A stretch of DNA of 64,000 nucleotides, taken from NCBI RefSeq assembly GCF_036365525.1, contig NC_090418.1:10974856-11038855 (forward strand), read 5' to 3'. Both the position numbers and the translations under genes were made by a program. The stretch comes from Heterodontus francisci (taxonomy: Eukaryota). The notes under the pieces are model-generated. The model was given only the letters and a program-made list of their open reading frames with translations, was not told the DNA's origin and made no database searches. Every line of letters starts with the position of its first letter. Within the stretch, counting starts at the first letter, position 1. Below are positions 3,159-44,500 of the stretch, in pieces.

Positions 3159-3192
<34 letters not shown>

Positions 3193-6685: not shown

Positions 6686-6825
6686 GGCATGGCTTATTTT
6701 GGGGCACAGGTCTACAGTACAATTGCAGGAATATGACTATGATTGTGCAGACAATGAAACCGTTGCCTAGATTGCAACATATTGGGGAAGGAGGGACAGT
6801 CAGTCGGAGTCTATGTTTGGTCTGA

Positions 6826-14623: not shown

Positions 14624-14904
14624 CTGAGTACTTGACACATAAATAAAAGAAAAAGATTAATATCACAGCTGAATATAGCATGAGGTTTGGCTTCTGATTT
14701 ACAGGCGGAATGCGATGATCCCAGGCCTCAGGGGCTGACAGTCACTCAGGCACCAAGTGCAGAGTTTCGTTTGATTCGATAGTTCGTGTCTGCGTCTATA
14801 GATGGTAATTGAGTTAACAAACATGAAGAGCAACAACACGTATCAAGCAACATTGATATATGGGGAAGGGGTGATATGCCAGTGGCAGCTGAACAGATGC
14901 TTAA

Positions 14905-15640: not shown

Positions 15641-15691
15641 GGTGAGACCTCTGCACGACCAGCATAATGAAAGGAGCTTGATATAACTTAC

Positions 15692-15785
15692 CCCCCTGGT
15701 ACAGCACATCCTCACTCCCGGCCGATCCATCAGTCGTGTACCTGGTGTTCTCCGGTAAGTGTGGATCCCAAAACCTGTCAGTGCC
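15692..15785 (-). CDS. Candidate upstream exon of NAT16-like gene (GTDRFWDPHLPENTRYTTDGSAGSEDVLYQG); copy 2 at 47380-47473
   Basis: Non-repeat island between two L2 fragments, with a ccag acceptor and strong G|GTAAGT donor. Its phase 1 end joins the CAG acceptor at 14623 in frame. Other acceptors or frames are possible. Confidence 0.5.
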
Positions 15786-20745: not shown

Positions 20746-22569
20746 GCCTCCCACCGCCTCACTACCCATTCCCGTCAGCTAGTTTAAATTCCACCCATTG
20801 TCCTCGGTTCCCACCATAAACTCCTCTCCCTAGCTACCAACTCCCTAGTAACTGCCTGAGGTTGAACCAGACTGTTCACAACATCAGTGTCATATTTAAC
20901 CCCAAAATGAGCTTCCGACCACATCTCCGTACCATCACTAAGACTGTAACATCAACTGACTCCGCCACTGTCTCAGCTCATCTGCTACTGAAACCCTCAT
21001 CCATGCCTTCATTGCCTCTAGACTTGACCATTCCAACGCTTTCCTGTTCTACCCTCTGTAAACTTCAGCTCCGAACTCGCACCGACTCCCATTCACACTT
21101 CATCCCTGTGCTCACTGATCTACTTTGGCTCCCAGTTTAGCAACAACTCGATTTGAAAATTCTCATCCTTGTTTTCAAAACCCTCCACAGCCTCGCCCCT
21201 CCCTATCTCTGTAATCTGCTTCAGCTTCAAGATCCTCTGAGATAACAACACTCTTCCAATTCTGGCCTCTCCACCATTCCTGATTGTAATCGCTCCACCG
21301 TTGGTGTCGGTGCCTTCAGCTGTCGAGGTCCTAATCTCTGGAATCCTCTCCCTAACCCTCTCCGCCTCACTACCTTCCTTTCCTCCTTTAAGTCACTCCT
21401 TAAACATCGCTCTTAGACCAAGCTTTCAGTCACCTGTCCTAATATCTCTTTATATGGCTCGGTGTGGTATGTTCCTTTACAACACTCCTGTGAAGCACCT
21501 TGGCTCATTTAGATCATCGTGAAGAGAAGCGGCCCCAACCACTACCGATAATGTCAACACTTTGTTTACCAGAACACAACCCATTCAATACGTCAATGAT
21601 TCCAGGGTCTTCACCTCTATCATTCTGTTCAGAAGTCCCAACTAAGTATTGGCCACTCCCTGTTTATCATTCCTGATATCATTCCCAAAGTTACCTTTTA
21701 CTATTCAAACCTGTGTCGTTTGTTTAACCGTTTCCATATTGTTCACTATCTTATATATCACAATAAGATCACTGCTCAGGTAGCTCAAACGCCCAAGTCA
21801 CTCCAATCTTTCCTCATAACTCAGACCCTACTGCCTGGGGATCAGTCTTGTGTCTCTTCTCCTCACTGCCTCCGGTGTTTGAATGCCTCACTGGTGTTTC
21901 ATTGACCAGAACTGAACGTAGTCCTCAAGCTGTGATCTGACCAGAGTTTGATTACAATTTCTTGCTGTTCTGATCTATGGAGTTCAACATTGCATTAACC
22001 CTTAAATATCGAGGTGTTAGTGTGGAGAAAGAGAGGGATAAGGGCAGGATAGAAAGGACATTGAGAAAAAGTGAGAGAGGTTTATTCATAAGGAGAAATC
22101 AAACGGACAAACAGGGAGACAGGATCAGCAGCGTGAGAGAGAAAGATGACTTACAGAGAAAGAGAATACACAGAGGCAACGATTTCCCCTTTACTGTCTG
22201 TGTTACAGAATCTACCTGGTGTCTGGTACCCAATAAAACAATTACCTGTAGGAAGCTGAGAGACAGCGCTCCATATTCTCGAATCTTTCTCTGTCGTGTC
22301 GAATACTGATCCAACAAACACAGCTCCCTGCGATCGATGTGCTGGTTAATTTGAATTAGATTCAATGATATTTGGAACAGACCAGCAAACAGCACTCGGC
22401 ACCCCTTTCAGAGCCTGCAGTCGAGCCAGTTATATCTCAGAGCAGAGTTTGAAACTGTAGGAAGGGCTGGTAAAAAATACCTGAGGGAATAGATTAGGAT
22501 TCGTCAGACTTGGCAGCTGGACAGAAAAGCTTGGCAGTGAGTGAGACAGAATAACTGAGAGAATCTTAC

Positions 22570-22593
22570 CAGCGGGCAATGTGAAGCTGCCAT
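22570..22593 (-). CDS. Candidate first coding exon of NAT16-like gene (MAASHCPL); copy 2 at 53732-53755
   Basis: ATGG start followed by CTG|GTAAGA donor, phase 0. Compatible with the 15785 acceptor (351 aa total) or an AAG acceptor at 14630 (322 aa). Not confirmable without RNA data. Confidence 0.4.
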
Positions 22594-22883
22594 TTGAGAA
22601 ATAATGCAAAGTAACTTGTTATTCCTGATTAACTGTTCTGATAACAGCAATGTAGTTGGGAAACGAGTTTATCCTGTAACAAGCTCAGTTCAGTTCTAAT
22701 GAAATAATTCCTCATCATTAGCTTCAATATGTGATCCCACACAATGTGTCAATTTAATTCCTTTCATTACACTGCAAGGGAATTGCTCCCATTCCTCTTG
22801 GCATTTCCTCGCTGATGAAGATTTTGGGAAGGTTGTACCCACCGGTTGCAGGCAAGCTGGTGGTTGGTCAGGCCTTTCCGTCA

Positions 22884-25150
22884 TCAGCAGATTCTCCCAC
22901 AGTGGGTACAAGTGAAGGTGTAGTGGCTGCTGGGGGTAATTGGATCTATCCTTCTCCTCCTTTTCTCTTTCATGCTGGTTCTTCGCTCAGTCTCAGAGGT
23001 GTCTGTAGCCCTCTTGATGTAGCATCTCCAGGCATCACGATCTATGGCCTGCACTTCCCACTGGCGATGGTCGATGTGACACACAGAGAGGGACTTCTTC
23101 AGGGAGTCCTTGAAACATTTGCATGGGCCCCCTCTGTTCCTTTTACCAGTGGTCAGCTTCCCGTACACCATGATCTTGGGCAGGCGACTGTCGTCCATCT
23201 GACTAACCTGACCCACCCAACACAGTTGGCTTTGCAGGAGGATGGCCTTGATGCTGGTGATGTTGGCTGTTTCCAGGACTTCAATGTTTGTGATGCAGTC
23301 CTGCCAGTGGATCTTGAGGATGCTGCGGACGCAGCACTGATGGAGGTGGTCTAGAAGGCGTACATGATGGCGGTATAGGACCCATGACCTGGTGCCATAC
23401 AGAAGGGTGGTGAGGACTTTGAGTTTGTACACTTTGAATTTGGTCTTTGCTCTGAGGCTGTGGTTGCTCCACACACATTGGTATAGTCTGCCAAATGTAC
23501 TGTTTACTTTTGAAAGCCTATAGTCCACTTCCATGTCTATGGTGGCATCAAACGAGATGACACTCCTCAAATAAGTAAATTGCTTGACGGCATTCAGCTC
23601 GGTTCCCTCGATGACCATGCTCGGTGGTCTATATTCTTCTTGGGGTGCAGGCTGACGCAGGTCTTCAGTTTTCTTCACACTGATTTTTAGTTCGAAGAGT
23701 TGTGCTTCCTTGGAAATGTGTTGTTATGTGTTGCAGGTCTGACCGACTGTGGGCCAGGAGAGCACAGTCATCGGCGAAAAGAAGTTCACGGATGAGTTTT
23801 TCCTGTATCTTTGTGTGAGCCTGAAGACGCCTGAGGTTCAAAAGATCTCCATCAGTCCAGCAGTGAATGTAAACTCCCTCCTCAAGGTCTTCCGTTGCCT
23901 TCTGCAGCTCAGCCAGCCAGTCAAGAGAAAAAGACAGCCGACCGTCAAGCATGCAGCACCCTTTGCAGCATCATGCTGAAAAAGATGGTGAATAGGGTCA
24001 GGGCCAGCACACATTGGAGATACGGAAGGGACTCAAGAGGTCGTTGTTTTGCTTGACTTGTCCGTACTGATTTTCATGAAACTGCTTCACCATGGCCAGG
24101 AACCTGGGTGGACATCCAAGTTTTACCAGGACTTTCCAAAGTCTATCTCTGTTCACAGTTTCGAATGCCTTGGTGAGGTCGACGAAAGTGACGTATGGGC
24201 CTTTGTTTTGCTCAAGACACTTTTCTTGTAATTGTCTGAGTGCAAATACCATGTCTGTGGCGCCGCTGTTTGCTCTGAAACCACACTGGCTCTCTGGGAG
24301 GTTTTCTTCCGCAATGGTAGGCACAAGCCTGCTCAAAGGTATTCCAGCCAGGATCTTCCCAGCAATAGAAAGGAGGCTGATCCCACGGTAGTTGGAGCAG
24401 TCTGATTTTTCTCCTTTGTTTTTGTACAAGGTGATGATAACGGTAGCACGAACATCCCGTGGAATCCTGCCCTGTCCCCAGCAGGCCGTGAAACACTCCT
24501 GGAGCTTGGTGTAGAGGGCAGGGCCACCTTGTTTTAAGGCTTCGGGTGGAATTCCACCGGCTCTGGGGGCTTTGTTGTTCTTCGTCTAGTTGATGGCGGT
24601 CACAGTTTCCTCCAGACTTGGGCTCTCACCCAGTTCTTCTTTGGCAGGCTGTTGTTGGATGTGTTTGATGGCAGTATCATGCACTGTGCACTTGGTGCTG
24701 AAGAGAGTTTCAAAGTGCTCTGACCAGCGTTCCAGGACTGACTCCTTGTCGGTGTGTAGGGTCTTGCCATCGGTGCTCCTCAGGGGGTTTTGGATTTGAT
24801 TTGCTGGTCCATAGATAGATTTTAATGTTTCGTAGAAACTTCTTATGTGGCCAGTTTCAGCGTACAGTTGAGTTATTTCCACAAGTGTGATCCACCAGTC
24901 ATTGTGGATGTTCCTCAGTTTACATTGTCGGGTGCTGCATGCTTGACGGTCGGCTGTCTTTTTCTCTTGACTGGCTGGCTGAGCCGGGTGACCCTGATGA
25001 GCTGACCTTTCTCCTTGTCATTTTCATCAAACCAGTCCCTATTCTTCTTGGTGCTGGGTCCGATGACCTCGTTGGAAGTATCCAATACAGAATTGCTCCC
25101 ATTGGAGGAGAATCAAACATCGGAGACAGTGCGGATAAAAACCACGAGGT
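22884..25150 (-). mobile_element. RTE-clade LINE (BovB-like), degenerate, between the NAT16 and ZP3 5' ends; unit 2 ~54046-56312
   Basis: NYRGISLLSIAGKILA, ESQCGFR, LRQLQEKCLEQ, FVDLTKAF, LLFADDCAL, RLPKIMVYG..GKRNRGGP, terminal CTHCGRIC. Confidence 0.92.
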
Positions 25151-25649
25151 GGATTCCTAGCAGCGGGGTTCTGCGTTACGAGGAAAGTCGGGAGAGACTT
25201 GGGCTTTCCGACCTGTCTAAGAGGTGATCTTATAGACCAACAAAAGGTAGTAAATAATAGGGAGAAACTTTAACTGGTTTGAAATAAACTCTAAGGCCTC
25301 AGAATTGGGCTCCATCATGACGTCAGTGCCGGACTGACAGAAGCCCTGAAGGGAAATAATGGCGGATACGGGGAAAGAGCCAGGGAGTGGGACTTACTGG
25401 ATTGCACTTCGGAAGAGCCGGCACAGACTCGTGCTGAACTATCCTATGATTTCATAGACTATCCCAGCACAGAAGGAGGTCATTGTGCGACAGAGGCTGA
25501 AAATCCACAGTGCGTCTTAAATGCCAAAGTACTGAGATGCACCCTCTCAAAATCATAATGCTTTCCTGTAGGAAACAAATGGAAAACAACAATCCAGTCC
25601 AAGACTTCAAAGTTACAGCCTGATCCTTTGTGGAGTATCCTAGAATCAT

Positions 25650-26215
25650 ACAATTATAGAATCTTACCCTACAGATGGAGGCCATTCGGCCCATCGTGCC
25701 TGTGCTGACTCTTTAAAAGAGCTCTCCAATTTCGTCCCACATCCCAGCATTTTCCCCATAACCCTGTAAATTAGTTCTCTTCATGTACCTGCCCAATTGC
25801 CTTTTGATAGTTCCAATGGAATCAGATTGTACCATCCTTTCAGATCATCTGTTCCAGATCAGAACAAGCCTCCGGAGGCAGGAGTTTCTCTTCATTACCT
25901 TTCGAGTTCTTTAGCCAATTATTTGAAATCGGTGTCCTCTGGTGACCCACCCACTTCCCAGAGGGAGCGGTTTCTCCCTACTTGCTCTATCAAAGCCCCT
26001 CACGATGTTGGACACCTCGATTTAAATCTCCCCTTAACCTTCTCTGCTCTAAGGAGACCAATCCCAGTTTCTCCAGTCTCTCCACATTACTGATTCCCTC
26101 ATTCCTGGTATCATCCTGAAACTCTGACCCCTCTCCAAGGCTTTGACATCCTTCCTAAAGTACGGTGCCCAGAATTGGACACAATGCTCCAACTGAGGCT
26201 TAACCAGAGAGTTGT
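25650..26215 (-). mobile_element. Degenerate CR1 3' fragment; unit 2 ~56812-57377
   Basis: LVKPQLEHCVQFWAPYFRKDVKALE and tail ggaggccattcggcccatcg. Confidence 0.8.
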
Positions 26216-26218
26216 TTG

Positions 26219-26397
26219 AAAAAAAGAAAGTCTTGCATTCATATAGCACCTTTCACGAGCACAGGACATCCCAAAGCGCTTTATAGCCAATAAAACAACT
26301 TTTGAAGTGTAGTCGCTGTTGTAATGGAGGAAACATGGCAGCCAATTTGTGCACAGCAAGATCCCACAATCAGGAATGTGACATTGGCCAGATAATT
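26219..26397 (-). mobile_element. Deu-domain-type SINE 3' fragment directly upstream of the ZP3 promoter; unit 2 ~57381-57559
   Basis: ttgcattcatatagcacctttcac..caaagcgcttt..ttgaagtgtagtc.ctgttgtaatg..gcagccaatttgtgcacagcaagatcccaca resembles AmnSINE/SacSINE-type sequence (from memory). Confidence 0.65.
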
Positions 26398-26451
26398 CTA
26401 GATTATTGTATGAATAGTTTCCGTCAAAATGAGCAATCGTGGAGCTGATTT

Positions 26452-26637
26452 GTGTCAGGTGACATGGGGAAACTCAGAGTCACTCCTATTGGTCTAAATA
26501 AAATAGGCCCGCCTGGCAATGAATCCATGGGTTCTGCCATTGGGTGTAAATTGTGGAGATTGGGGCTGGTTAATTGGCTCAATGTTGCTGCTTCTGGGAT
26601 CATTGGTGTCAGGTGACTGCAGGTTGTGTGTATAAAA
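26452..26637 (+). promoter_or_regulatory. ZP3 proximal promoter: TATAAAA, two CAGGTG E-boxes, five inverted CCAAT boxes; copy 2 at 57614-57799
   Basis: TATAAAA at 26631-26637. GTGTCAGGTGAC occurs twice (E-boxes 26456-26461 and 26610-26615). ATTGG at 26488, 26539, 26559, 26573 and 26602. Confidence 0.75.
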
Positions 26638-26681
26638 GGAGCTGGTTGGTGGGTGAAGCAATGGTTGAGTTGTTTGGTATC

Positions 26682-29594
26682 ATGGGGGATTTTGTAATGA
26701 GGGGTTTGTTCCCAGTGCTGGTGTTAGTTGGAATTGTCTGTTGCTCTGATACTTGGCAACAGTTTCGAGACCAGAGGTTTCCATGGAGAAGAGTGAAAGC
26801 CACCCCTGTGCCTCAGAGAGTCCCTCCAACTGGGTCTCCCTTTGGTTCCCGTTTCCATGTGTCTGAGGGTCGAAGTGTGTCTCCACTGCAGACTGTGACG
26901 GTGCAGTGTGGAGAGCAGAACCTGCTGGTCAGGGTCCAGATGGATTTATTTGGAACCAGGCACCTGATTAAAGCTGCTGACCTGACCCTGGGGACAGCAG
27001 GTTGTCGGCCGACCAGGATCTACTCTCAGAACCACACTGTCCTCTTTGACTATGGGCTCCATGAGTGTGGCAGCAGATTACAGGTAATGAGTCCTTGACT
27101 CTTGCTCTAAGCTGGGTGTGTAGATTGTTGCTAACTCTTCATTCCAATACATTGTGAAATGTCATTGAGTTGTCTGTCTCCTGCATTATCAAACTTCAAT
27201 CTTGTTAGTTGTGTATTGTACTTTTGTTTTATCCAGTCTCTCCTTCTTTCCCACCTTTTATTATCAGCCCAATTGGTTTTGAACCTTCTCTTTGGTCTCT
27301 TCAAGCTTTCCTGTTTTTCTTATCCTCATTAATGAGTCTTTTCAGTTCTACTGCCCCTCATTAAACTGAACTTGAATCTTCAGTTTCAGTCCAGTTTTAT
27401 TTAATCTGGTTGACTCTTCAATGAACGGAATGAAAAATTAGATTTGATGCCACATTTCCTGCTTTCCCTGTAACTGGATTATGTGCAGCCCTGCTTCAAG
27501 ACTGGTTTATTTCTGAGCTCTAAATTGCTGTAACTTGTGGCTGTTAAGGGAATGGCCCAAAAGGACAGCTTCACTTTTATTTTGTTTAGTTCTTGTGCTC
27601 ACAGTCTCTCCTTTTTACTTGTGTTAATTCTCCAGAGCAACATGCTGTACAGCCCCTCTAGCTGCTTTTAAGATTGTGCTTAAACTTCTCCTCAAATTCC
27701 ATGTCCTCATCTCATTCTGATTCACTTTATGCCCAAAAAGATATCCATCCATCTTGAATATCATCCATGAGGATTTCTGTCTCGGGTAGAGAATTCCAAA
27801 GATTTATGGTTTTTTGAATGAAGCTTTTTTTAATCATGTCAACTGCAAGTGACCCTGTATCTGAGTCTACACTTCCTAATTTTACTAGTCAGTTGGGGAA
27901 CTGACTCAGCACTACCCTGTCAAGCCCACTAAGAACTGTTTTGTTAGGATCACTTCATTCTTAACTCCTGTACAGAGTATTTTCCTTTTTTGGTCTGATC
28001 TCCCTGCTTCAATATGATGTCTTTCAGATGGCTGGAGATTTCCTGGTCTACACCACCCACCTGAACCACACCCCCCAGTATCATGGATCTGTCATTGTGA
28101 GAACCAATGGAGCTGTCGTTCCCATCGAGTGTCATTATTTTAGGTAATAGATGAGTGATTTTTATTAATGAATTTTCAGTCCAATGCAAGTTCTCTGAAG
28201 TTGTCCTAAAATGACTCTCCTGTCCTTCCAGGAAGGGCAATGTGAGCAGTAACCCCATCAAGCCCACCTGGATCCCATTCAGCTCCACCAAGTCTGGAGA
28301 AGGGCATCTGTCATTCTCACTGCGCCTAATGAATGGTATGTGATGGGTGGATGGGGAGTGATTTCCTGTACTCACCCACTGGGAGTTGTACCCACTGTCT
28401 CCAACCCTTGTCCTCTTGTACTTCAGATGACTGGCTTACAGAGCGCACCTCGACTGTCTACTACCTGGGTGACCTCATTCACATTGAGGCCTCTGTTTTA
28501 ACGACCAACCACATGCCCCTGAAGCTCTACATTGACCACTGTGTAGCTACATTGAGCCCAGACAAGGATTCCACCCCGAGATACAGCATCATTGACTATA
28601 ATGGGTAAGGAGCTCTCTGCTTTCTCCAGTTGGTCCCATCTCAATGGCTTCACTTGATTCAATTCATGTCCCTTTTTTGAATCTTTCTCCAGTTGCCTCC
28701 TGGACAGCAAAGCTGAGGACTCCTTTTCAACCTTCGTGTTGCCAAGAGACGAGCGTGAGCTGGACAAGCTCCAGTTTGACCTGGATGCTTTCCTCTTCTT
28801 TGGAGATGACCTTTCCTTGGTAAGAGGAATCTGATCATTGGGCCCTCCATGTTTGGAGGGAGTCACTAAATAACTTGTGTTGAAATTTATCCCTCAGATT
28901 TTCATCACCTGTCACCTGAAAGTTGCTGCAGTGGATCGGAGAGATTCCATGAACAAAGCTTGTACTTTCCAGAAGATGCAGAATGTGTAAGTTCCCTTTT
29001 CTCTCCTGAGGGATGTTGTATGGAAAGGTGATGGACAACCTGGTTGAGCAACTTTCTCTTGTTTAGCTGGACCCCATTGGAGCAATCCAACAATGACATT
29101 TGTGCCTGTTGCCATGTGGGTAACTGTGGTGCCACAAGGGAGTTCCGATTTCCTTCCAGAGGAAGGAGGGATCTTGTACCTGAAGCTGGTAGGACATTGA
29201 TCCTCTAGATGTGGGAGATCTCCCTTTACCCCCTCTAACTGGCATGTTTGATATTGCAGAGAGTGAAGCTGGATTGAAGTGGGAGGGTGAGGCCTCACTT
29301 GGACCCCTGGTCATTCTGGATACTGAGGTGACTGACCTGGCAACGGAGTCCTTGAATGAGGTTGAGCGAAGGCTGCAGGCGAGGTCTCCAGGTGGTGAGT
29401 TGGCTGACTGCTAGTTTCCATTTTCCCCTCAGTGTTTCCTTCACTAACCATTGGTATCTCATTGCTTTGTAGGTGTGGAGTCTGAGGTGGTCCTGATTGT
29501 GGCCCTGACTGTGACAGCTGTCTGTCTGATCTCTGCTTCATTGATTGCTTTGTTCCTGTACAGAAAACGCAAGCAAACTCCAGTTCTCCAATGA
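26682..29594 (+). CDS. zp3: Zona pellucida sperm-binding protein 3-like (ZP3/ZPC), copy 1; exons 26682-27083, 28028-28143, 28232-28335, 28427-28604, 28693-28819, 28898-28986, 29067-29188, 29260-29394, 29473-29594 (464 aa)
   Basis: All introns are GT-AG with compatible phases and no internal stop. Protein has a signal peptide ([21 protein letters not shown]), ZP-N (VTVQCGE..DLFGT..LTLG..C..GLHECG..PIECHY), linker ([14 protein letters not shown]), ZP-C ([44 protein letters not shown]), ZP3 Cys cluster ([10 protein letters not shown]), furin site RGRR, external hydrophobic patch (SLGPLVIL), a TM helix and a basic tail. An in-frame ATG at 26661 is an alternative start. Confidence 0.95.
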
Positions 29595-29596
29595 TC

Positions 29597-29602
29597 AATA
29601 AA
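29597..29602 (+). terminator. ZP3 polyadenylation signal; copy 2 at 60761-60766
   Basis: AATAAA two bases after the TGA stop, followed by a T-rich tract. Confidence 0.75.
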
Positions 29603-30818
29603 GCAATGATACTTGTATCTTTTTCTATTTATTTCGTGTCAGCCCAATGAACAACAGCCCAGTTTAGTGATACTAGAGCATTCTCCTAATTGTGAAATAG
29701 ACCAATTTCTCCCGAACCTATTTCGGGTTTGGACTTGTCAAGTTGCAGCCTGACCTATAAGAAGGATTAGTGAAATGAATCCGATCTGAGCTGATTTATC
29801 TATTCAGCTGCATCTCAGTCCCATGTTGCTGAGATTTATCCACCAGTTAGAGGAGCTGTCTGGTTGGCCAATAAAGGTGAACATTCTGAGGTCCATGGAT
29901 GTATCCTCTCCACCTGAGTTCATGTCAATGTCCCATATCCCTGTGGTTTTCTACAACCTAAGGGCATTGCTGTGCAGAGTTGAGGCTGGTTGTTAGTTTC
30001 CTTTTGGCTTTCATTGACAGCTTAGGTTTTTTTTTTCATATGGGCATTCAACTGACTGTCACTTGTGGGAAGCTACAAGCATTGGGGAGGATGAGCAGTT
30101 TAGCTATGAGTTGCTTGGTCAAGTTCTCTAACTGTCGAAGACTAATTGGATTTTGAAGTTACTACCAAGTGAGTTGTTTGGCATGTTGTCTGTGGACCTC
30201 AAAAAGGTTCCCTGTAAGACTGAGGCAGCCTTTTCCACTTGGATGTGGTTTTTGGAGATACTAAGTGTTTATATTGACTGGGATGTGACCAGTGGTGATC
30301 CCTCGGGTTCTACAGTCTGTACTGGCTACTGTTACATGAAGGAATCTTGATGTGTTATATCCAAGTTTGCAGGTGATCTCCTGTGCCAATGAGAGCAGGA
30401 AGTTCCAAAAGGGGCACTGAGTGGATGGGCAGAGTGACAACTGCAGCTGACTGAAATTCTTCACTCAAGTCTGAAGATTAAAAATTTAAGTCAAATTCTC
30501 ACCAATGAGATTTGAAGGTCCAAGTCCTTTATTTTAATAAACTATAGCAAACATTTTGCTGAACTATAGGCTTGTCACAAAGTGGAATGGCTGATGGTTC
30601 AGTTGCTGTGTACTTTGTCCAAACTCCAATGTTTTGGAGTACTAAAAATTTTGGGCACTACATCTGGGAAGGATACTGCTGGATTTGGTTGGGTTGTAGC
30701 ACAGGTTGACCAGGGTTAAGTTGAGGGCTAGTTGCACAAACCTGTGAAGATGATTGGAAGAATGACCTAATCAAGGGCCTGTTAAATGTTAGGGTTTGAT
30801 AGGATAGATAGACATTAT

Positions 30819-31197
30819 GGGGAGGTGGTGGCCTAGTGGCATATCACTGGATTAGTAACCTGGAGACCCAGGGTATTTCTCTGGGGACATGGCTTCAAAT
30901 CCCACCACAGCAGAAGGTGGAATTTGAATTCAATTAATAAATCTGGAATTAAAAAGCTAGTCTAATGATGGCCATGAAACCATTGTCTGTTTAAAAACCC
31001 ATCTGGTTCACTAATTCCCTTTCTTTTTTTAGGGAAGGAAATCTGCTGTCCTTACCTGGTCTGGCCTGCATGTGACTCCAGATCCACAGCAATGTGGTTA
31101 ACTCTAACACTCAGTGCAAGGGCGATTGGGGATGGGTAATAAATGCTGGCCTGGCCTATGACACCCACATCCCGTGAAAGAATTAAAAAAAAAAAAA
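30819..31197 (+). mobile_element. tRNA-derived SINE with poly(A) tail; unit 2 ~61983-62366
   Basis: A box TGGCCTAGTGG, B-box-like GGCTTCAAATCCC, same body as 4688-5110, A-run 31185-31197. Confidence 0.85.
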
Positions 31198-31387
31198 CTT
31201 AATGTGGGGTGTTAAAGGGAGCTAAACTTAATAGATTATTCAGGAGTTATCTCTTACTCAGCCATTGTGTTGTGACGTGTGTTTGTCAGGTTGTCTCTGA
31301 CTATTTGAGCGGCACCATCTTTAGTCCTGGCATCCAGAAGTCGCAGTCCATGACGTTTTAGAGGCATTTGCGCATGTGCCACAGCAC

Positions 31388-31400
31388 TGCCACCTAGTGG
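31388..31400 (-). promoter_or_regulatory. CTCF consensus motif at the unit junction; copy at 62558-62570
   Basis: TGCCACCTAGTGG, reverse complement CCACTAGGTGGCA, matches the CTCF core. An NRF1-like TGCGCATGTGC lies just upstream in unit 1. Confidence 0.55.
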
Positions 31401-34400
31401 TAGTTTTTGGAGGGCCAGCAGCTCACCAGCCACAGTGGTGACACTGGGATGAGTGGTCACTGCTGGGACTGCACCCGGCCAGGAGCAACAAGATGGAACA
31501 GGTCCCAGAACCCAGGGAAGTGGGGTCAGGCTGACCGGGGCCAGTCAGGCAGGGTGGTAAGGGGGTTGTTGGCAAGGGCAGAGTGGAGGGTGTTTCAGTG
31601 GGGGCAGCCCTCCACCGGGTGTCCCCTCCATGGGCCACAGGGTGCCCGATCAGGAGGGCTTCCCCATAACCCAAGCCCACATGGAGGACGACAGCTTTTA
31701 CTGGGTAGACTTCCCACGTGCTGGAGGGACTCCAACCCATCGGCCATTGGGGCTCAGGGCAGGAATGCCATCCTCCACCATCCCCCACCCCCGGTTGAAC
31801 CAGATGGAGTCGGGAACGGCGACAGGCATTCCCCGTCCCGCTTTCCCTTCCGATTCCACGACCTCCTACGAACCTATGAATTAGGAGCAGAAGCAGGCCA
31901 TTCAGCCCCTCGAGCCTGCTCCGCCATCAATAAGATCATGGATGATCTGTTTGTGTCTGAATTCCACACTGCTTGGAAACATGTGTTTTGTGTTGCAGGT
32001 CTGACTGACTGGGGGCCAGGAGAGCAAGTCATCGGCGTAAAGAAGTTCACAGATGAGTTTTTCCTGTACCTTTGTGTGAGTCTGAAGACGCCTGAGGTTG
32101 GAAAGGTCTCCATCAGTCCGGCAGTGAACGTAAACTCCATCCTCAAGGTCTTCCGTTGCCTGCTGCACCATCATGCTGTGCAGGAAACGCGAGCAAACTC
32201 TGATCATTGTCAAATGATCAATAAAGCAATGATACTTGTATCTGGTAGCTCATTTGTCACTGGATCCTCTTAATTGACTCATTTAATGTATCTAATCACT
32301 GGTATCAGCCTGGAACGAGACTTGAGGTGGTGAGGTAGAACTGGATGTTATCAACATATATGTGGAAACTGACTGTCTTTAGATCACCAAGGGGCAGCAT
32401 GCCAATAAATAAGAGGGAGCTGATCGAACCTTGTGCCACACTGGAAAGTGTTTCTGGAGTAGCACGAGTAGATGTTCCTATGGCTCGGACTGGATTGCTA
32501 AGAATAGAAGCAGGTGACTTTAAAGCAGCTGCCCAATGAGGGAGAGGAATTGGAGAAGCAGGTTGTGGTTGCTCCTGGCAGACTGCAGCTAGGTCAGGAA
32601 TGACGGAGGGATAGTTTATCACGGTTGCAACATTCCATTATGTTTTTGATGAGCCATTCTGGTGTTGCGATTGCCGTACTGCTAATTGGAGTGATGACAA
32701 ACATGGGGGTCCCATTTGTCTGGAACTCAATATGGGAGGTGTCATGTTCAAGGATGTTGGTGATGGAGAGAGAGGTAGATTACAAGGACAGAGGGGTCAG
32801 CTTGCTTGAGAAGGGGGGGGTAATGATGGCAGATGTGAAGGGGAGTGGAACAAATGAGAAGCAAGTATCAGCTAATTTAGGGGCCGAGAAGGGAAATTGG
32901 GTGGTTTGCAGTTTAGTGGGAATAGGGTTGAGAAGATGAGGTGGGGTGTCAGACAAGATGAGCTTGGAGTGGCACTGAGGGAAGATAGAGGAAGATACAT
33001 TTTAGGGCAGGGTGTCAGGTGATCCTTTAGCCCAGCAGGCCAAACATGTTGCTAGGAAGTAGCAGAAGCAGCTGAATGGTCTTTGTAGTTAGATGTGAGC
33101 GTGGGGTTAGAGAGTAAATCTCCCTCGACTCTGTCCCATCTAACACTCCCAGGACAAGTTAGAGTGTAGATGGCATGTAACCTCTGCAGCATGAGGGAAA
33201 CCCTGGTCCATACGTACATCCTAGCTGCATCTACCCTGTCTATCCCTTTGAAACTTACAAAATACTTAATGAGATCACCTCTCATTCTTTGAAATGCGAG
33301 AGAATACAGGCTCAGTTTCCCCAATCTCTCTTCATAGGACAGTCCCATCATGCCAGGAAAAAGTGTGGGGAATTTCTGTTACACTCCCTCGATGGTAATA
33401 ATATCCAGGTGCTGTCTAACCAAGGTTCTATACAATTCCCACGTTCTATTCCATCTGCCACATTCTTGCCCACTCACTAAGTCTGTCCAAATCCCTTTGA
33501 AGCCGCTTTGCATCTTCCTCACAACACACATTCCCACCTAGTTTTGTGTCATCCGCGAACTTGGAAATATTACATTTGGTCCCCACATCCAAATCATTGA
33601 TATATATTGTGAACAGCTGAGGCCCAAGCACTGATCCCTGCGGCACCCCACTAGTCACAGCCTGCCAACGTGAGAATGCCCCATTTATTCCTACTTTCTG
33701 TTTTCTGCCTGTTAACCAATCCTTAATCCAAGCCAGTATATTACCTCCTATCCCATGTGCTTTAATTTTACTAACCAACCTCCTGTGGGGGACTTTATCA
33801 AAAGCCTTCTGATTATCCTCGTATACTACGTCCACCGACTCCCCTTTATCAATTCTGTTAGTAACATCCTCAAAAAAACTCCAAGAGGTTTGTCAAACAT
33901 GATTTCCCATTCATAACTCCATGTTGAGTATGCCCAATCAGATCATTATTTCCCGGTGTCCCTTTATCACATCCTTTCGAAAAGATTATAGCATTTCCCC
34001 AACAGGTCTGTAATTCCCTGTTTCTCTCTCCCTTCCTTCTTATTTGCTACCTTCCAATCTGCAGGAACCAATCCAGAATCTATAGAATTTTGAAAGGTGA
34101 TCACCAATGCATTCACTATCTGAATAGCTACCTCTTTCAACACTCTGGAATGTAGAATATCAGGTCCTGAGGACTTATCAACCTTCAGCCCCTTAATTTC
34201 TCCAATACAACCTGCTTACTAATACTAATTTCCTTCAATTCCTCATTCTCCCTAATCCCTTGGATCTCTAATTCCGGGAGATTTCTTGTATCTTCCTCAG
34301 TGAAGACAGACACAAAGTAATCATTTAGCTTCTCTGCCATTTCTCTATTCCCCATTATAAATTCTCCTGACTCTGTCTGTAATGCCTATGTACTGTCATG

Positions 34401-37400
34401 TGTATTCATGTATTTTCCCAATCCACCTCAGCCACTTAGGCCCTTATTCTTCAAAATTCCCTTTGTTCAAATTTAACACCCTGGCTTCAGATTGAACTAC
34501 CTCACTTTCAAACATAATGTAATATTATGGTCACTCATCCCTAAAGGTTCTTTTACAACAAGATTATTAATTAGCCCTTTCTCATCACATATACTAGATG
34601 TAAAATAGCCTGTTCCCTAGTCGGTTCCACAACATACTGCACCAGAATACCATCCCTAGCACACTCCAGACACTCGACCTCCACAGCATTAATGCTCATT
34701 AGGTTTACCCATTCTATAGTTATTTTCTTTGCATTTCAAAAGAAGTCAAATGCAGACACAACATCAATCAATACCTGCCTGTGTCACACAGCTTCATGCA
34801 GCTTTTATGAAAACTTAGAAACTTCAAGCACACCGTGGACCAATTCTGTAGCACAATCCACTTACACACACACACACACACACACTCTCTCCCCGACTTT
34901 TTCTTCTGGTCACACATTCCAGAAGCATCAAGGTAATTAAACAATCAGAATCAACACAAATTGTCGACTCTGTGAAATAGCTCAGAAATTCCAAAATGCC
35001 AATTTGTGATGGAATACAGGGATAATAGGCTGGAGTAGATATATTTTCGGCATACTTAATATATTATACCTCTTAGAATTAAAGATTGAGTGAATGGTTA
35101 GGGTTTCAAGACTCACTGACATTCCCCTTTAAGAAGGTAGACTTAGAAATTTCGAGGTCCCTGTTGCAAACTTTTAAGTTGGAGAATCCATTTCAGTGCC
35201 TCTGTTGCGAGGGACTTGGTAGATAAACTTGCACATTGAAATATCCTGCGTCATATCAGTAACAGGTAACCATAAATTTAACTAATTGATGGTGTTGGTA
35301 AATGTCGACAGATTGACCCACAAGGGAAGTTCAAACTACAATAAAAAAGGCAATCAAGAGTACTCACAGGAACAAGAGGTCAGGTAAACACAATTATAAA
35401 CATTTTGACCAGATAAATGCTCACAACTTCAAGAGCAAGAGAACTCCAGTAAAACATTAAGTGGAGATGGTAAAGATATGGATTTTAAAAAACAAGGAAA
35501 ACACACACAGGAAGGTAACGCCTATATGCTAAAAGTCAGATGACACTTCAGAAACAGTAAAAACATGAGAAGTTTGAAGCAAAGATTAGAAATGTTGAAT
35601 CCTCAAAAATGCTTCTCAACTACGGGGAATTTAAGGTAAAATGTTTACTTTAAATTTTGATGGAAATTTGGGATATTCTAAGATATTTTGCTGTAACATT
35701 AGCAAGGTTAAACTTTTGGATTCTATGTTAGAAATAAGATTGTGTTACATCTTTTAGTAATATTTAATATTGTAATATACTTATCCACTTAGACGTGTAT
35801 TGCATGTTAACATTTATATATTTATTAAATAATTTAATAAATTGCCACATGTAACATTCTGTATACAACTGCAAAGAACCCCCTCTCTGTGTCTCTTTAA
35901 GTGGAGAGATACGTATTGAAGAGAGTTCCCAGACCCTGACAATATCTGGGATATTTATGACTTAGCCATAATTATTAAAAGTAGGCTATCCGAAAGATGG
36001 TAATATTCTCTGTTGGTTTTCTTTTCTTGAGGGAAACCTAGTACAATTCTTTGGACCCAAATAAGTGTCTGAGAATTTGTCTGGTTTGAACTTGATTAAA
36101 GGAGATTCATAGGGATGTACTCCTGATTTGGTTTGGTCCCTATAAGAGGTTAAAGTCATAAATCACTTCAAATTATTGATTTGATAATCTCATGTTCCAG
36201 AATTAGAGACTCTCATGCAATTCACAACAACCAGAATTTCACCGTGGCCGCAATAAAAGACCGGTTTTCACAACTTAATATGTTAATCAAACTGAACGTG
36301 TGCTCCTCGTGTCTCAGGAGCTGAAGAGGCATCTGACTGCTGCTCCTCCGTACATAATGTCTTCAGGCACATGGGAGACGGTGGTGGAAGTGGAAATGTC
36401 ATTGAACTAGTACTCCAGAGGCCCAGGCTAATGACCTAGGGACATGGATTCAAATGCCACCATGGCAGCTGGTGGAAATTAAATATTCAATTAAACAATA
36501 AAAAAATCAATTAATTCACAAAAATCTGGAATCAAAAGGTAGTCTCAGTAACGGTGCCATGAAACTATCATCGATTGTTGTAAAAGCCCATCTGGTTCAT
36601 GAATGCCCTTGAGGGAAGGAAATCTGCCATCCTGACCTGGTCTGACCTACATGTGACTCCAGACACACAGCAATGTGCTTGACTCTGAACTGCCCTCTGA
36701 AATGGCCTGGCAAGCCACTCAGTTCAAGGGCAATTAGGGATGGGCAATAAATGCTGGCCTTGTCAGTGATGCCCACATCCCAAGAAAGAATGAAAAGACT
36801 TGAACCATGCGGATTTGGGACTCCAAAGTTAGAGATGATAAAGTGGGATGTGGAAAGGAGCAGTGACCGCACTCCGTGTCCCAAAGCCCCCTTGTCAACT
36901 TTTGGAGCTATAGTTTCTGCTCTCATGGACTTACAATCTCACCTCACTTTATTCCAGATGAGAATTGAGGATGAAACACAATTCCCACAACATTGAGAAA
37001 TAATAAAAAGGAGAAGAGAGTTTCAATCTGGCAGTGGTGATTAGGGATAGGTATTCCCACAGTGCTGTTGGGAAGGGAGTTCCAGGATTTTGACCCAGCG
37101 ACAGTGAAGGAACGGCGATATAGTTCCAAGTCAAGATGGTGTGTGGCCTGAAGGGGAACTTGCAGGTGCTGGTGTTCCCATGCATTTTCTGCCCTTGACC
37201 TTCTAGGTGGTAGAGGTCACAGGTTTGGAAGGTGCTGTCGAAGGAGCCTGGGCGCATTGCTGCAGTGCGTCTTGTAGATGGTACACACTGCTGCCACTGT
37301 GCGACGGTGGTGGAGGGAGTGAATGTGTATGGATGGGGTGCCAATCAAGCGGGCTGCTTTGTCCTGGATGGTGTCGAGCTCCTTGAGTGTTATTGGAGCT

Positions 37401-38510
37401 GCACCCATCCAGGCAAGTGGAGAGTATTCCATCACACTCCTGACATGTGCCTTGTAGATGGTGGACAGGCTTTGGGGAGTCAGGTGGTGAGTTACTCACC
37501 TCAGGATTCCCAGCCTCTGACCTGCTCTGGTAGCTACGGTATTTATATGGTTACTTTAGTTCAGTTTCTGGTCAATGATAACCCCCAGGATGTCGATAGC
37601 AGGGAATTTAGTGATTATAATTCCATTGAATGTCAAGGGGTGATGGTTAGATTCTCTCTTGTTGGAAATGGTCATTGCCTGGTACTTGTATGGCACGAAT
37701 GTTACTTGCCACTTATCAGCCCAAGCCTGGATGTTGTCTACACAGGCATTTCTACACGGATTGCTTCAGTATCTGAGGAGTCGCAAATGGTGCTGAACAT
37801 TGTGCAATCATCAGCGAACATCCCTACTTCTGACCTTATGACTGAAGGAAGGTCATTGATGAAGCAGCTGAAGATGGTTGGGCCGAGGACACTACCCTGA
37901 GGAACTCATGCAATGATGTCCTGGGACTGAGATGATTGACCTCCAACAGACACAACCATCTTCCTTTTCACTAGGTATGACTCCATCCAGTGGAGAGTTT
38001 TACCCCTGATTTCCATTGACTCCAGTCTTGCTAGGGCTCCTTCATGCCATACTCGGTCAAATGCTGCCTTGATGATACCTCACCTCGAGAGTTCAGCTCT
38101 TTTGTCCATGTTTGAATCATGGCTGTAATGAGGTAAGAAGCTGAGTGGCCCTGGCAGAACCCAAACTGAGCATCAGTGAGCAGATTATTGCTAAGCAAGT
38201 GCCGCTTGATAGCACTGTTAACGACACCTTCCCTCACTTTACTGATGATCGAGAGTAGACTGATGGGGCGGTAATTGGCCGGGTTGGACTTGTCCTGCTT
38301 TTTGTGTACAGGACATACCTGGGCAATTTTACACATTGCCGGGTAGATGCCAGTGTTGTAGCTGTAATGGGGCATGGCTTATTTTGGGGCACAGGTCTAC
38401 AGTACAATTGCAGGAATATGACCATGATTGTGCAGACAATGAAACCGTTGCCTAGATTGCAACATATTGGGGAAGGAGGGACAGTCAGTCGGAGTCTATG
38501 TTTGGTCTGA

Positions 38511-41500
38511 TTAAAATCTAGTCAGAATTTGGAATATATCCCCCTCTGCTATAAACTCATCTTTCCAATATTGTTTCCCTTTCTGAAGCCCCAGTTCCTT
38601 GGTACAGAATTCCCACATCTGGGGGGACAGCGATGGATTTACAGGCAGTAGGCAGATTACATTGCCTTGTAAAGGAGGCAGGTTTTGCAGCTGAGAGAGG
38701 AAGACACTTTTCACAGCTGATAAATCTTTCCCAAACATGTCTATTCTGTAAACATAGTTTCCCATTGGATCTCTGTAGGGAGCTGTGCCCAAACTCACAG
38801 CACGTGTGTTCTCCTTTCTATCTGCTATCCAGCTGATATCCCGCTTCAGTAAAATATCCAGGTTGCTCTCCAGTGGTTTGAATACGCCTCCTCTGTGAAC
38901 GATTCTCCTGCCCGGCAGCACTGTGTCAATTACGGTTCTGTTCAGGAATACCGACCTCACTTCATCTGGTTGCAGGGAGATCGGTTCCCAATATTCAGCC
39001 CCACTTTTCTTCATGTTACTGATCAGCTCACTCTTCAAAGTGGGAACATTTATTGATGGAAATCGAAGAGAAATCAAGGACTGGAAACAAAAGATATCGG
39101 GGAAAGGGTTAGTGATGAAATGTGAGATGAGGATTAAATATTAAATACATGAAATTTAATGCAAAGTGATACATTTTGGTCAGGAGCACGAGGAGAGGCA
39201 ATACAAAATAAAGGGTACAATTCTAAAGGGGCTTCAGGAACAGAGGGACCAGGGGGCTATGTGTACACAAAGCATTGAAAGTGGGTAATAAGGCACATGG
39301 GATCCTGGGCTTTATAAATAGAAGCATCGAGTCGAAAGACAAGGAAGTTATGAAGGATCCTTATAAAAACATTAGTTTGGCCTCAACTGGAGTATTGTGT
39401 CCAATTCTGGACACTACATTTAGGAAGGATGTGAAGGCTTTAGAGAGGATGCAGAAAAGATTCACGAGAATGGTTCCAGGGATGAGGAACTTCAGTTACG
39501 TGGATAGATTGGAGAAGCTGGGGCTGTTCTCCTCCGAGAAGAGAAGGTTGAGAGGAGATTTGATAGAGGTGTTCAAAATGATGAGGGATCTAGACAGAGT
39601 AGATTGGGAGAAACTGTTCCTATTGGCAGAGGGGTCAAGAACGAGAGGACAATGATTTAAAGTGAATGGCAAAAGAATCAAAGGCAACATGAGGAATTAT
39701 TTTATTTACACACAGCCAGTGGTTATGATCTGGAATTCAGGAGCTGAGAGGGTGATGGAGGAAATATCAGCAGGGCTACGAGGAAAGGGAGGGGAGAGTG
39801 GGACGGACTAAATTGTTCTTGCAGAGAGCCTGCACGGACATGATGGGCTGAATGGCCTCCTTCTGTGCTGTTATCATTCGATGATTCTATATTATTCACC
39901 AGTGGAATGTTTAATAGTAAAAATATTCAGAGAATCTCTCACTATCTCCTTCTTGTAAAATATGCATTTCTGACAAACCTTTTCTGTCAAACCTCATCTG
40001 AAACTATTTTCCAGTATAACAGAATTTGTTTATTACTGGGGTTTGTTAAAATATTCCAGGTGAAATCATTATGCTAATCAATGCAAATCTATGTGAGAGT
40101 TTAGCTGCATGTTAATCGCACCTGTTTGCCTCGTGGATGAAATCCCTTGAAAATGTCTTGCCCTGTGACACCGCTCTGGTTTTTCACCTCCGGGTACCTC
40201 GCTCTTACACACTGGAGAATGTGTTTGTAAATCAGCCGTCCAATTCCTTTGCCCCTTTCTGAAGGATGAACATTTAATGCTTCCATTGCAGCTGTCTGTC
40301 CATCATCCACGATGTGAGCAGAAACCAGAGCGACCTGGAAATAGAGAGGAAGACAGGGAGGATTCCCACTGGTGTCCATGTATCAGAAGCACAAGTGTAT
40401 AAAGCAGAGCGACTGACCTGTTCTTTCTGCCTGATGCTATGGGTTTACATTGGTGTTTCACCTGAAACACTCCAAACTTCTAAGACTTTGCTTCAGATTT
40501 CCATCATCTGCAGATCTTTTGCCATTTGGTTTTAAAGAAAAACAAATCCAGAGTGCGGAGAGAACATTCTAGAATCCAACAGCACAGAAGGAGGCCATTC
40601 TACCCATCAGGCCTGTGCCGGCTCTCCAATTCGTCCCACTCCAGCCTCCCACGTTTTCATTCAATTTTCTCAATGTTTGGGGCCTTGGATAGTGAGGAGA
40701 GAGGGGGTAAATGGGCAGGTATTACACCTCCTGCGATTGCAGGGGAAGGTGACGTGGGACGGGGACGAGGTGGTGGGGGGTAATGGAGGAGTGGACCAGG
40801 GTGTCACGGAGGGAACGATCCCTTCGGAATGCTGACAGGGGAAGGGAGGGGAAGATACATTTGGTAGTGGCATCACACTGGATGTGGCAGAAGTGGCGGA
40901 GGATGATCCTTTGATCTGGAGGCTGGTGGAGTGGAAAGTCTGGACAAGGGGAACCCTGTCGCGGTTCTGGGAGGGAGGGAAGGGGTGAGGGTAGAGGTAC
41001 AGGAAATGGGCCGGACACAGTTGAGGGCCCTGTCAACCACAGTGAGGGGGAATCCTCAGTTGAGGGAAAAGGAAGACATATCAGAAGCACTGTCGTGGAA
41101 GGTAGCATCATCAGAGCAGATGCGTCTGAGACGGAGAAACTGGGAGAATGGAATGGAGTCCTTACAGGAGGCAGGATGTGAAGTGTAGTCGAGGTAGCTG
41201 TGGGAGTCAGTGGGCTTATAATGAATATTATAAGCTCTCGTGCTCACATCTCTGTCCTGGGATTCCAGTGAACATCAACGCAAGCTCGACGAACAGCATC
41301 TCATTTACCGATTAGACACTGCAGCCTGCCGGACTGAACATTGAATTCAATAATTTCAGAGCATGATGGGTCCCACCCCCTTCTTATGTCTATGGAGGAG
41401 TTGAGGAAAATAGCTGAGCAGTGTGGGATCACTGTACGTGGCAAGGCTCGGAAGTCTGAACTCCTAAGGCTAGTGGCCAACCATTTTCCCCTTGAATCTG

Positions 41501-44500
41501 AAGAAGCAGAAGCAGTGTTAGAAGCAGACCCAGACAGGGTACTGCTAGAAAAGATACAATTGGATCAAAGGAAACTTGAATTAGAAGACAGGGAAAGACA
41601 GATAGAGAGAGAGAGACAGGAGAGGGAGAAAGAGAGAGCCTTCCAGAAGGAAAGGGAAGAAATAGGGAGAGAAGAGAGAGAGAAAGAAAGGCAGCAGAAG
41701 GAAAGAGAGAAAGAGGAGAGAGAGAGAGAGACAGAGAAAGAATATGCCTGAAAGAATCCAAAGAAAGAGAGCTGAAGTGGCTTGAGTTAACTAGGGGGCG
41801 ACAGAGTAACCCCAGTGAAAGCATGGTCAATATGCAGGAGCATAATTCAGAGCTGGGTACGAAATTGTTAAAACTCGCCCAACTCATTCCAAAATTCAAT
41901 GAGGAAGATTGGAAACGTTTTTTGTGTCTTTTGAGAAACTGGCAAGGCAGCTAAAATGGCCAGCTGCGACCTGGTCTCTCTTAATACAAAGCAAGCTAAC
42001 TGGAAAAGCCCATGAGGTTTATTCCTTGTTGCCAGATGAGAGTTCTCCTCGGAACATATGAATTAGTACCCGAAGCCTACAACCAAAAGTTTAGAGCCCT
42101 CAAAAAGCAAGTTAATCAAACTTATCTGGAGTTTGAAAGAAGTAAGCAGCTGACTTTTGACCAGTGGCTGGTTGCTCTTAAAATACAGCTCAGCTATGAG
42201 ACTCTCAGAGAAGTAGTTCTGTTAGAGGAATTTCAAATATCTCTCCCACTCACAATAAAGACCCAGGTAGAAGAGCAGTGGGTTCAGGGAGCCATTCGGG
42301 ACGATGAGTTTGCTTTAATTTTTAAGTCGGTTTTCCCGGGGACAACCTTTCCTAATCACCCCCACAAATCCGAAAGGGAAAAAGGGTGAGAAGGTGATAT
42401 CTGCCCAGGCAGTCCTGGGAGAGAAAGGAAAGCAGGAGACACGGGCAGGTCTGGGGATTGGGGGGTCCTCCTCTAGCCAAAAAGGAAGGTGCTATGAGCA
42501 AGAGGACCTGCGTGCTTCCATTGTAATAAAGCAGGGCATTTTAAAGCTAACTGCTGGAAACTAAAGGGAAAACCAGTAGAGTTAAACAGGGCACACCCGC
42601 TCAGTGAAGACGGAATCCTGATGGAAGGCACAGAACAAGCTGTAACTGCATTACGAGTGCAACCCAGGAAGCTTACTGCGGCCAGTGCAAGAAAAGGTAA
42701 TAAGGTTCCTGAAGGTTATCAGGGTTTTATGTCTGAAGGGGAAGTAACCCCATACCCCTCAAGTGGAGCAAGCAAGCCCATAGTGATTCTCAGGGATACA
42801 GGAGCCTCTAGATCCCTTTTCATGGGAAAAGGCCTGACCTTTCCCCCAGAGAGTGCAGTGAACATCACAATGGTGGTGAGTGATATTGGAGGGCAGTGTA
42901 TACCTGTACCTGTACACTGGGTAAACCTGGAGTGCGACCTGGTTTCGGGACCAGTGACCATAGGGATTGTCCCTAGTTTGCCTGGGGACAGGGTTGACCT
43001 GCTCCGAGGTAATCTGGAGGGGGCAAAGGTGCTAGCGCCCCCAGTAGTGAAAGAAAGACCGCAGGAGGTCAGAGAGACAGGGCGGTGGCAGAAGACGGTC
43101 TCCTGCAGTTTCCCTGAATGTGTAGTGGGTCAGGCCATGATCAAACCAGATCCCCCAGAGGAGACTGCATTGGTGCTGCAGGCAGATGGCCAGGCTCGCC
43201 TGTCCGAGACTTTCTTTGGAAAGTTAGGAGACCGAGGGAATGAATTAAATGGATTTTCCCCAGCTGAGGCTTAGCGAGCTGAATCAGTATTGCGAGAGTT
43301 AGCACAGACTGCCCAGTCTGAAAGTGAAGCAGAGGGAGTCCCTGATTGCTACTATTTAAAGAATGAGGTAATGGTGAGGAAATTGAGTTCTCCTCACAGA
43401 TCTGAGGGCAAGGAGTGGACAGTAGTCCACCAGTTAGTGGTGCTGCAGAGGTACCGGGGAGCAATATTAAGAAGGGCCCAAGAGACTACCGTGGCTGTAC
43501 ATGCTGGTATACGAAAGACCAAAGCCCGCATAAGACAACAGTTTGACTGGCCAGAACACCACAAAGATGTGGTGGAGTACTACAGGAGTTGTCACATGTG
43601 CCAGGTTGAGGGGAAACAGCAAGCTGCAGTGAAACCTGCACCCCTAAGTCCCGTACCAGTGTTAGGAGGACCCTCCAGCAGAGGGCTGGTGAACTGTAAG
43701 GGACCCCCGCCGAGAACAAAAGGGGACAGGCAGGCACACGGTTGGCAAAAGTGTGGAAAGAGAAGGGGAAAAAGTGACCAAGAGGGCAGGTTAAAGGAAA
43801 CATTGGCACCTAGAAAAGACAATTCTAATCGGCTTTAAGATTGATGAATGAATGGAAGTGAATGAGAGAAATGCATGGTTTTTCTTTCTGTATCTTATAT
43901 TTCTCTCAAACCTTTCAATGAAATGTGCCGTTTTTATTCAAATCATATTTCATTCCCCTGGGTGTGGAGGTGTCATGCAGACCCCCACCTGCCAAGAATG
44001 AGACACATATTTCACCACATGCACATTGATTTTTAAACTGTTAGTGGAGTAAAGAAAGAATTGGTTTAAGAAAAAACCACCAGACCCTTGACTGGACAGA
44101 CATTTGCATAGTAACAGACTGTAATTGGAAAAGTCAAAAAGGGGCCACTCCCTGCTTCAATTTAATCCATAATGGACTTTTGATTACCAGACGTTGAAGG
44201 TGGAGAGGTTAGCATTCCATGTTAACTGCTAAGATGGCCGAATACACAAACAGACGTGGTCAGACCAGTTTGGTCACATGACTAACTGGCTTTTGGAGTT
44301 TTTTGAATTTGAACTTGCCACAGAGAATTTGAACTCAGAAAGCTGCTTGCTCCTGGATTGAAAAGACCTCGCTCCTGTTTGCTCATCTCTTTCTCACCAG
44401 CTTTGGAATCCATTGAAGACACAGGAACCCCAAGAGAGAAAAGTCTCCTACAGTGAACAAGGTTTAAGAAGAATACTGGGCCCCAATGAAAAGCAAGAAT

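Follow-up and report, generated by a model that had tools for sequence, protein, structure and literature searches.

Positions 31409–32243 of the window, the 64,000-nt stretch of Heterodontus francisci DNA analysed here, are occupied by an 835-nt composite of three pieces of the surrounding tandem unit. The evidence supports the view that this composite derives from the locus, predates the present amplification and was then co-amplified. As to how it arose, we tentatively favour a one-step local insertion templated by DNA, with two forward template jumps and later co-amplification, a reading to which we give slightly less than an even chance.

Three colinear pieces in a NAT16-like/ZP3-like array

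Self-BLAST showed that the window holds two periods of a ~31-kb tandem array of NAT16-like and ZP3-like genes. Positions 1–17220 matched 31704–48907 at 99.3% identity and positions 17747–32813 matched 48906–64000 at 98.6%, with substitutions between units of 0.55% and 0.88%. A CR1-like fragment of ~526 nt (17221–17746) is present in one unit and missing from the next. The NAT16/histidine N-acetyltransferase-like gene lies on the minus strand (6826–15829; Pfam Hisat_C and GNAT) and has four coding exons, with a degenerate LTR-retrotransposon-like element bearing a zinc knuckle (9650–13220) within an intron. The ZP3-like gene on the plus strand (26682–29620; coding 26682–29594) is intact, with nine exons and 463 codons. 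An RTE-like element occupies the minus strand at 22780–25103, with a target duplication of 14 nt (22780 and 25090). On the same strand, at 22100–22680, exon-like stretches with splice-site-like ends were seen (22249–22676), for which a six-frame search gave no Pfam family over the cut-off. The names MITE, CR1, RTE and L2 are what we take the window's repeats to be, judging by their translations rather than by a repeat library; the RTE has an RVT_1 hit.

One ZP3 copy in the window is RefSeq XP_067879903.1 of H. francisci (455/455 ungapped columns) and the other closely matches XP_067879906.1 of the same species (431/432). At least 26 ZP3-like RefSeq models of H. francisci exist, all on a single 19.5-Mb scaffold; 13 end in QTLIN, 3 in QTPVLQ like the resident gene and 4 in other tails, and 6 are without a normal last exon. 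Models 880 and 882 match the window's upstream region at full amino acid identity over ~130 codons, and their ZP3 differs by 7%. Three distant cluster models (P0033, P0097 and P0090) combine a near-exact copy of the window's non-coding upstream region with a different ZP3 and thus represent mosaic units. Several sharks have large ZP3-like clusters, with 38 members grouped under a Heptranchias representative and 15 from Mustelus, on which the literature matches listed held nothing. In Heptranchias, ZP3 and NAT16-like models are placed on a scaffold of one length. None of the 17 protein matches of 114–366 aa was a NAT16 model of H. francisci. One shark-like ZP3 (P0003, 85% to the query) carries the source label Salmonella enterica, where contamination or mislabelling is likely.

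The pieces, which we call A, B and C (562, 207 and 68 nt), follow the order and strand of their sources. Piece A (31409–31970, plus strand) comprises part of a MITE-like repeat and, over ~100 nt, the 3' tail of a CR1-like element on the minus strand. It copies 16220–16783, which lies on the plus strand 391 nt upstream of the first coding exon of the NAT16-like gene, at 94% in local alignment (528/560 ungapped columns), and the two share the MITE-like/CR1-tail junction. Piece B (31972–32178) is a fragment of the minus-strand RTE-like reverse transcriptase and corresponds to 23709–23978 of the RTE-like element: 31972–32167 align with 23709–23906 at 92% (180/196), and the match resumes at 32168–32178 with 23968–23978, beyond a 61-nt stretch present in the source alone. 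Piece C (32176–32243, plus strand) copies 29556–29620, the end of the last ZP3 exon with its stop region and AATAAA, at 59/64 ungapped columns (86% with gaps) and an alignment score of 87, whereas none of 40 shuffles scored above 29; the match stops 18 nt past AATAAA. The pieces meet at two junctions. The first, J1 (31970–31972), skips ~6.9 kb and shows TCC in both sources and TGC in the composite, from which we infer a TCC microhomology followed by one substitution. The second, J2 (32176–32178), skips ~5.6 kb at a CTG microhomology.

These alignments bear out the initial annotation in its reading of three colinear, same-strand pieces, including the shared repeat junction in A, the RTE origin of B (less the 61-nt stretch) and the ZP3 tail joined through CTG; self-BLAST and local alignment agree on the order. 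Its estimate by eye of 85–92% identity was slightly low for A and B (92–94%). It was also right that the composite is far less similar to its sources (6–8% diverged) than unit is to unit (0.6–0.9%). Differing sites in multiple and pairwise alignments numbered 36/560 in A, 17/207 in B and 5/64 in C, an even divergence (chi-square p 0.67) with a pooled distance of 0.073. The proposed origin from a NAT16–ZP3 block is not borne out by these alignments. The composite contains no NAT16-derived sequence, and its source span, 16220–29620, lies wholly upstream of NAT16 (6826–15829).

Piece B has an acceptor-like site at ~31997 and a 91-codon frame (31982–32273). In a predicted RefSeq model, XP_067879899.1, ZP3 exon 8 is joined to this acceptor-like site, so that the model ends inside the composite, which thereby misleads annotation; the tail is probably a prediction artefact, as the 91-codon frame continues past AATAAA. 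None of 24 candidates in a protein search matched the frame, a weak blank in that P0090 includes the frame as a non-representative member. On the evidence of that single predicted model, the patch gives ZP3 a possible alternative last exon and a second poly(A) signal. The composite is most likely without function.

Copies and age of the composite

The composite was found in all three periods sampled by the window: at 1–540, cut by the window edge (1–545 with the flanking repeat), at 31409–32243 and at 62579–63430 (62568–63435 with the flanking repeats), in each case on the plus strand. The third copy shows differences at 11/555 sites in A, at none in B (207) and at none in C plus flank (128), with several indels. 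A fourth copy is implied by XP_067879899.1, the last 91 aa of which match the composite frame at 90/91. The claim that such a 'ghost' sits at every unit junction thus stands as far as its recurrence goes; that the site is a junction is unproven, the phase of a tandem array being unreadable from inside. Positions 1–1110 and 31704–32813 do not differ at any of 1110 nt, against ~3% for the third copy, suggesting recent conversion or crossover. Substitutions between units are highest near the MITE-like regions at 16000–17000 and 31000–32000 (29 and 17/kb, versus 0–16 elsewhere).

In one read run, a 1034-nt contig covered 32214–33245, that is, piece C and the right flank, at a depth of 46, with only 30 nt on the short side of the right junction. 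Contigs from the same run gave depths of 48 and 50 for the resident 3' flank, 46 and 49 for the RTE 5' side and 57 for the NAT16 end, whereas the ZP3 core contigs stood at 116 and 157, so that the composite contig has about a third of the core depth, a measure that gives no exact copy number. The composite would accordingly mark a sub-array and not the whole cluster. An assembly artefact was rejected, as the copies differ from one another and from their sources and read contigs carry C with its flank. The read lay-out, which drew on 4 of 24 runs over 23400–38700, was swamped by repeats: summed contig depth in the bins of piece A exceeded 160,000, A and B being made of high-copy repeats, and the joints listed included no empty site or intermediate form. 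Reads of a second organism gave no cover at 29532–30553, and one contig departed from the composite at 31407 in the manner of the source; depth was low, and repeats may explain the cover to the right of the composite. A metagenome scan with the ZP3 3' end returned 14 loci, all matching over at most 27 nt, which we took as chance, and none extending into ZP3.

In two respects the composite reflects the unit as it was earlier. One concerns the RTE-like source, which carries a younger templated insert on the plus strand at 23903–23969 (also 55065–55131), made up of a 55-nt exact inverted copy of 24930–24984, a filler of TT and a 6-nt duplication, TGCAGC, for a net gain of 61 nt. This insert, templated from 1 kb away and present in both units, interrupts the frame of the source RTE. 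Piece B lacks it, and its frame runs on uninterrupted: SMMVQQATEDLEDG. The other concerns the ZP3 tail. ZP3 proteins of other sharks end in QTLFNQSSNDQ or QTQFNSLSNDQ; the resident gene, with its QTPVLQ end, reads FSNDQ, whereas the composite keeps QTLI and reads LSNDQ in a shifted frame. From these proteins it appears that the resident gene suffered an 8-nt loss and the composite a separate 5-nt loss. Since the composite has neither the 61-nt insert nor the 8-nt loss, it would have split from the resident sequence before both changes.

For whale and zebra sharks a dS of 0.061–0.111 over ~50 My is given in PMC13100897; on that scale a distance of 0.073 corresponds to roughly 30–60 My. With the epaulette shark rate of 7e-10 per generation (PMC10587355), the same distance yields ~5e7 generations. 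We therefore place the age of the composite at roughly 30–60 My, a loose date. The older states show age and not mechanism, being retained by a relic and by an old insertion alike. Because that older unit state is preserved, the composite provides both a date and a root for a ZP3 sub-array, probably of a few copies, in a slowly evolving shark whose cluster has at least 26 models.

Junctions, flanks and the origin of the composite

Four junctions lie within 835 nt. On the left, the plus-strand 6-nt sequence TGGTAG (31398–31403, also 62568–62573) is followed by a filler of five T (31404–31408, the same in the 62.5-kb copy) and then by piece A; on the right, TGGTAG recurs at 32243–32248 (also 540–545 and 63430–63435), its first T shared with piece C. 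The initial annotation had missed this arrangement, a candidate target duplication. TGGTAG with a pure T5 is found at both scorable left ends, and TGGTAG at the right end of all three copies. Among ~60,000 random pairs, 0.31% showed a repeat of at least 6 nt whose gap was empty or pure A/T and 1.5% one with any gap of up to 10 nt, a pure run of at least 4 occurring in 4 pairs; with the real right end held fixed, 46 and 247 of 30,700 left places qualified, all of these figures flattering the repeat because it was sought after the fact. Apart from dispersed repeats, the flanks of the composite matched nothing else in the unit, and both stop matching sharply. An 11/13 inverted match across the right junction (32205–32217 / 32250–32262) is one of 35 inverted pairs and was set aside. 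The chance of a right end 18 nt past the ZP3 AATAAA was 0.14% for this signal over the whole span, 0.7% for the last 3 kb and 1.5% for any of 11 signals.

The left end adjoins a putative CTCF-core-like motif on the minus strand (31389–31400), present also in the 62.5-kb copy; two matches occur per period on both strands together, against 0.04 expected. It lies in a stretch (31230–31408) with a CpG observed/expected ratio of 0.53, versus 0.11 upstream, which also has an NRF1-like palindrome; both motif assignments are presumptive. This stretch may be the remnant of a promoter or insulator. Across the presumed empty site, continuity with a CTCF upstream motif was not found, the offset being 19 as against 17 in the sites described in bioRxiv 2023.12.05.569896, which counts against the insertion favoured below.

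In the reading that we favour, a slightly staggered break at 31398–31403, 1.8 kb downstream of a ZP3 gene, would have been repaired with copies of DNA from within the unit. At the free end a few T would have been added, after which 562 nt would have been copied from 15 kb upstream. A forward jump of 6.9 kb on a 3-nt microhomology would have been followed by the copying of 207 nt, and a second jump of 5.6 kb, again on microhomology, by that of 68 nt. Rejoining at the far end would have doubled 6 nt of the target, and the patch would then have aged by ~7% relative to its templates before being amplified with the unit. We infer that TGGTAG is a target duplication, that a single event took place and that the template was DNA. 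The direct repeat with its T5 filler points to insertion into an intact site, and the 61-nt insert in the RTE, with its local template, T filler and 6-nt duplication, indicates that templated insertions of this sort occur in the unit. Short islands joined by 3-nt microhomologies, with the sources still in place, are as in replicative templated insertion. However, a DNA-templated insertion leaves the right end at the poly(A) site unexplained, and the direct repeat measures only 6 nt, one base of it common with piece C.

According to the initial annotation, the composite was a duplicate that had shrunk from ~13 kb by large deletions and was then co-amplified. It is indeed locus-derived, older than the array and co-amplified; the shrinkage is where we differ. 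For a collapsed sister unit, which several large deletions or a single complex one would have reduced and which would then have been amplified together with the adjoining unit, making the 31-kb unit a former dimer, the colinearity, the even divergence and the older states speak just as well as for an insertion. In its QTLI and LSNDQ frame the composite resembles other sharks and intact paralogs; the mixed tails and mosaic upstream regions of the ZP3 cluster show that birth, death and exchange do occur in it; and an end just past the poly(A) signal would be natural if the 3' flanks of the paralogs were unlike. Yet this account needs all four breakpoints within 835 nt, leaves the flanking repeat and the T filler to chance, and finds no remnant of NAT16 or of the flanks, which do not continue as unit sequence. 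In a crude simulation with uniform breakpoints and two sequential deletions, both junctions survived in a remnant of at most 835 nt in only 0.75% of 2,000,000 runs. When the region was searched with the last 140 aa of each of 123 ZP3-like proteins, the one strong match was XP_067879899.1, which fell on the composite; the flanks gave only matches with E of 0.01–0.05, a weak test because flanks are non-coding. Weak tblastn matches of similar E (0.01–0.05) to Heptranchias ZP3 exon-7-like peptides at ~35183–35278 on the minus strand are probably chance. We regard the collapse as unlikely, though a serious contender; an insertion of either kind, templated by DNA or by RNA, is in our judgement about twice as likely.

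The RNA-templated kind, which taken alone we consider rather improbable, would start from a long unspliced plus-strand transcript ending at the ZP3 cleavage site, reverse-copied without a tail, and with two jumps of RNA template position, into a nearby downstream break; the T5 would represent untemplated A at the cDNA end. It explains why a repeat flanks the composite and why the right end falls 18 nt past AATAAA, and a divergent transcript could conceivably start at the left end, which is 391 nt upstream of the NAT16-like gene read in the opposite direction. LINEs are described as making double template jumps with direct repeats (PMC2104539), and tailless retrocopies exist (PMC5322556), but the tailless forms reported in the latter come from therians and the anole only. 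The right end has no poly(A) (3 A in 20), landing 1.8 kb from the template requires a mechanism in cis, and the 6-nt repeat is shorter than the duplications described for L1 (8–30 nt) and than the one at the RTE of this unit (14 nt). The RTE signature described in PMC6007223, in which the duplication starts with T ~10 nt after a T stretch, is missing; the plus strand starts with T but has no T stretch upstream, and the minus strand has neither. No GT..AG was found at the inner junctions in any of 18 placements, each on both strands; one GC..AG needs an extra mismatch and another placement gives GA..AG. Splicing at J1 or J2 on either strand was rejected on this ground, as was splicing followed by small deletions, for which both splice joints must have been erased, the nearest donor- or acceptor-like sites being 279, 19, 10 and 84 nt off. 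A minus-strand RNA would have A5 but no poly(A) signal (0/12 hexamers in three copies). More specifically, and more doubtfully still, the composite might record, as a germline fossil, a break repaired in cis from an RNA template, in which a cleaved, unspliced and untailed ZP3 read-through transcript served a break 1.8 kb downstream beside the CTCF-like site.

If the composite were templated filler at the first tandem-duplication breakpoint, with 31408 and 32244 as the true, unrelated unit ends, it would become a real unit junction, and short templated pieces are known at duplication junctions; since chance would then have to account for the poly(A)-site end as well as for the repeat at the flanks, we hold this to be very improbable. 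Least credible of all is a dispersed mobile composite or a set of three independent insertions. A and B do consist of high-copy repeats, but the nested-repeat junction in A, like the ZP3 tail, is specific to this locus and colinear with B, all three copies in the window have common flanks, and C with its right flank has a depth of 46, like the other sub-array contigs (46–57).

Significance and relation to known systems

Relics of birth and death and higher-order units are familiar from tandem gene clusters, where an old paralogous fragment may lie inside a younger amplified unit, as the composite does; a deletion relic gives no reason for a bracketing direct repeat with filler. Colinear 'ghosts' in gene clusters are easily taken for collapsed duplicates, and the marks of copy-and-paste seen here alter the count of birth-and-death rounds. 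If the template was RNA, the composite would be rare natural evidence of inherited, multi-jump RNA-templated repair in a vertebrate. Among the literature matches listed, from a collection with few subscription papers, nothing concerned a shark NAT16–ZP3 array or such a composite, which is weak evidence of novelty. The event itself is of a known kind.

Templated insertions by iterative template switching consist of short islands joined at microhomologies (PMC5120786), and 'cycles' re-replicate host sequence (PMC7025897). Like FoSTeS/MMBIR, cycles and local n-jumps as described in these two papers, the composite strings together short local templates with microhomologies and, if TGGTAG is a target duplication, returns to the host site with re-replication. 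Those cases are somatic or de novo, with the reference and the parent known, whereas the composite is a germline fossil ~7% diverged; its jumps are all forward on one strand, only 6 nt would be re-replicated, and it was amplified later in a gene array. With tripartite LINE chimeras formed by double template jump (PMC2104539) it shares three fused pieces between direct repeats. In that source, however, the chimeras join three different transcripts, with a LINE 3' end and 14-bp repeats, while the composite joins three colinear pieces of one locus, shows neither a LINE end nor a tail on the priming side and is bracketed by a 6-nt repeat. Tailless retropseudogenes (PMC5322556) resemble the composite in the missing A tail, the flanking duplication and the 1-nt overlap with the target; they differ in their dependence on relaxed L1, in duplications of 8–35 nt, in having been reported from therians and the anole rather than a shark, and in having no internal multi-kb jumps.
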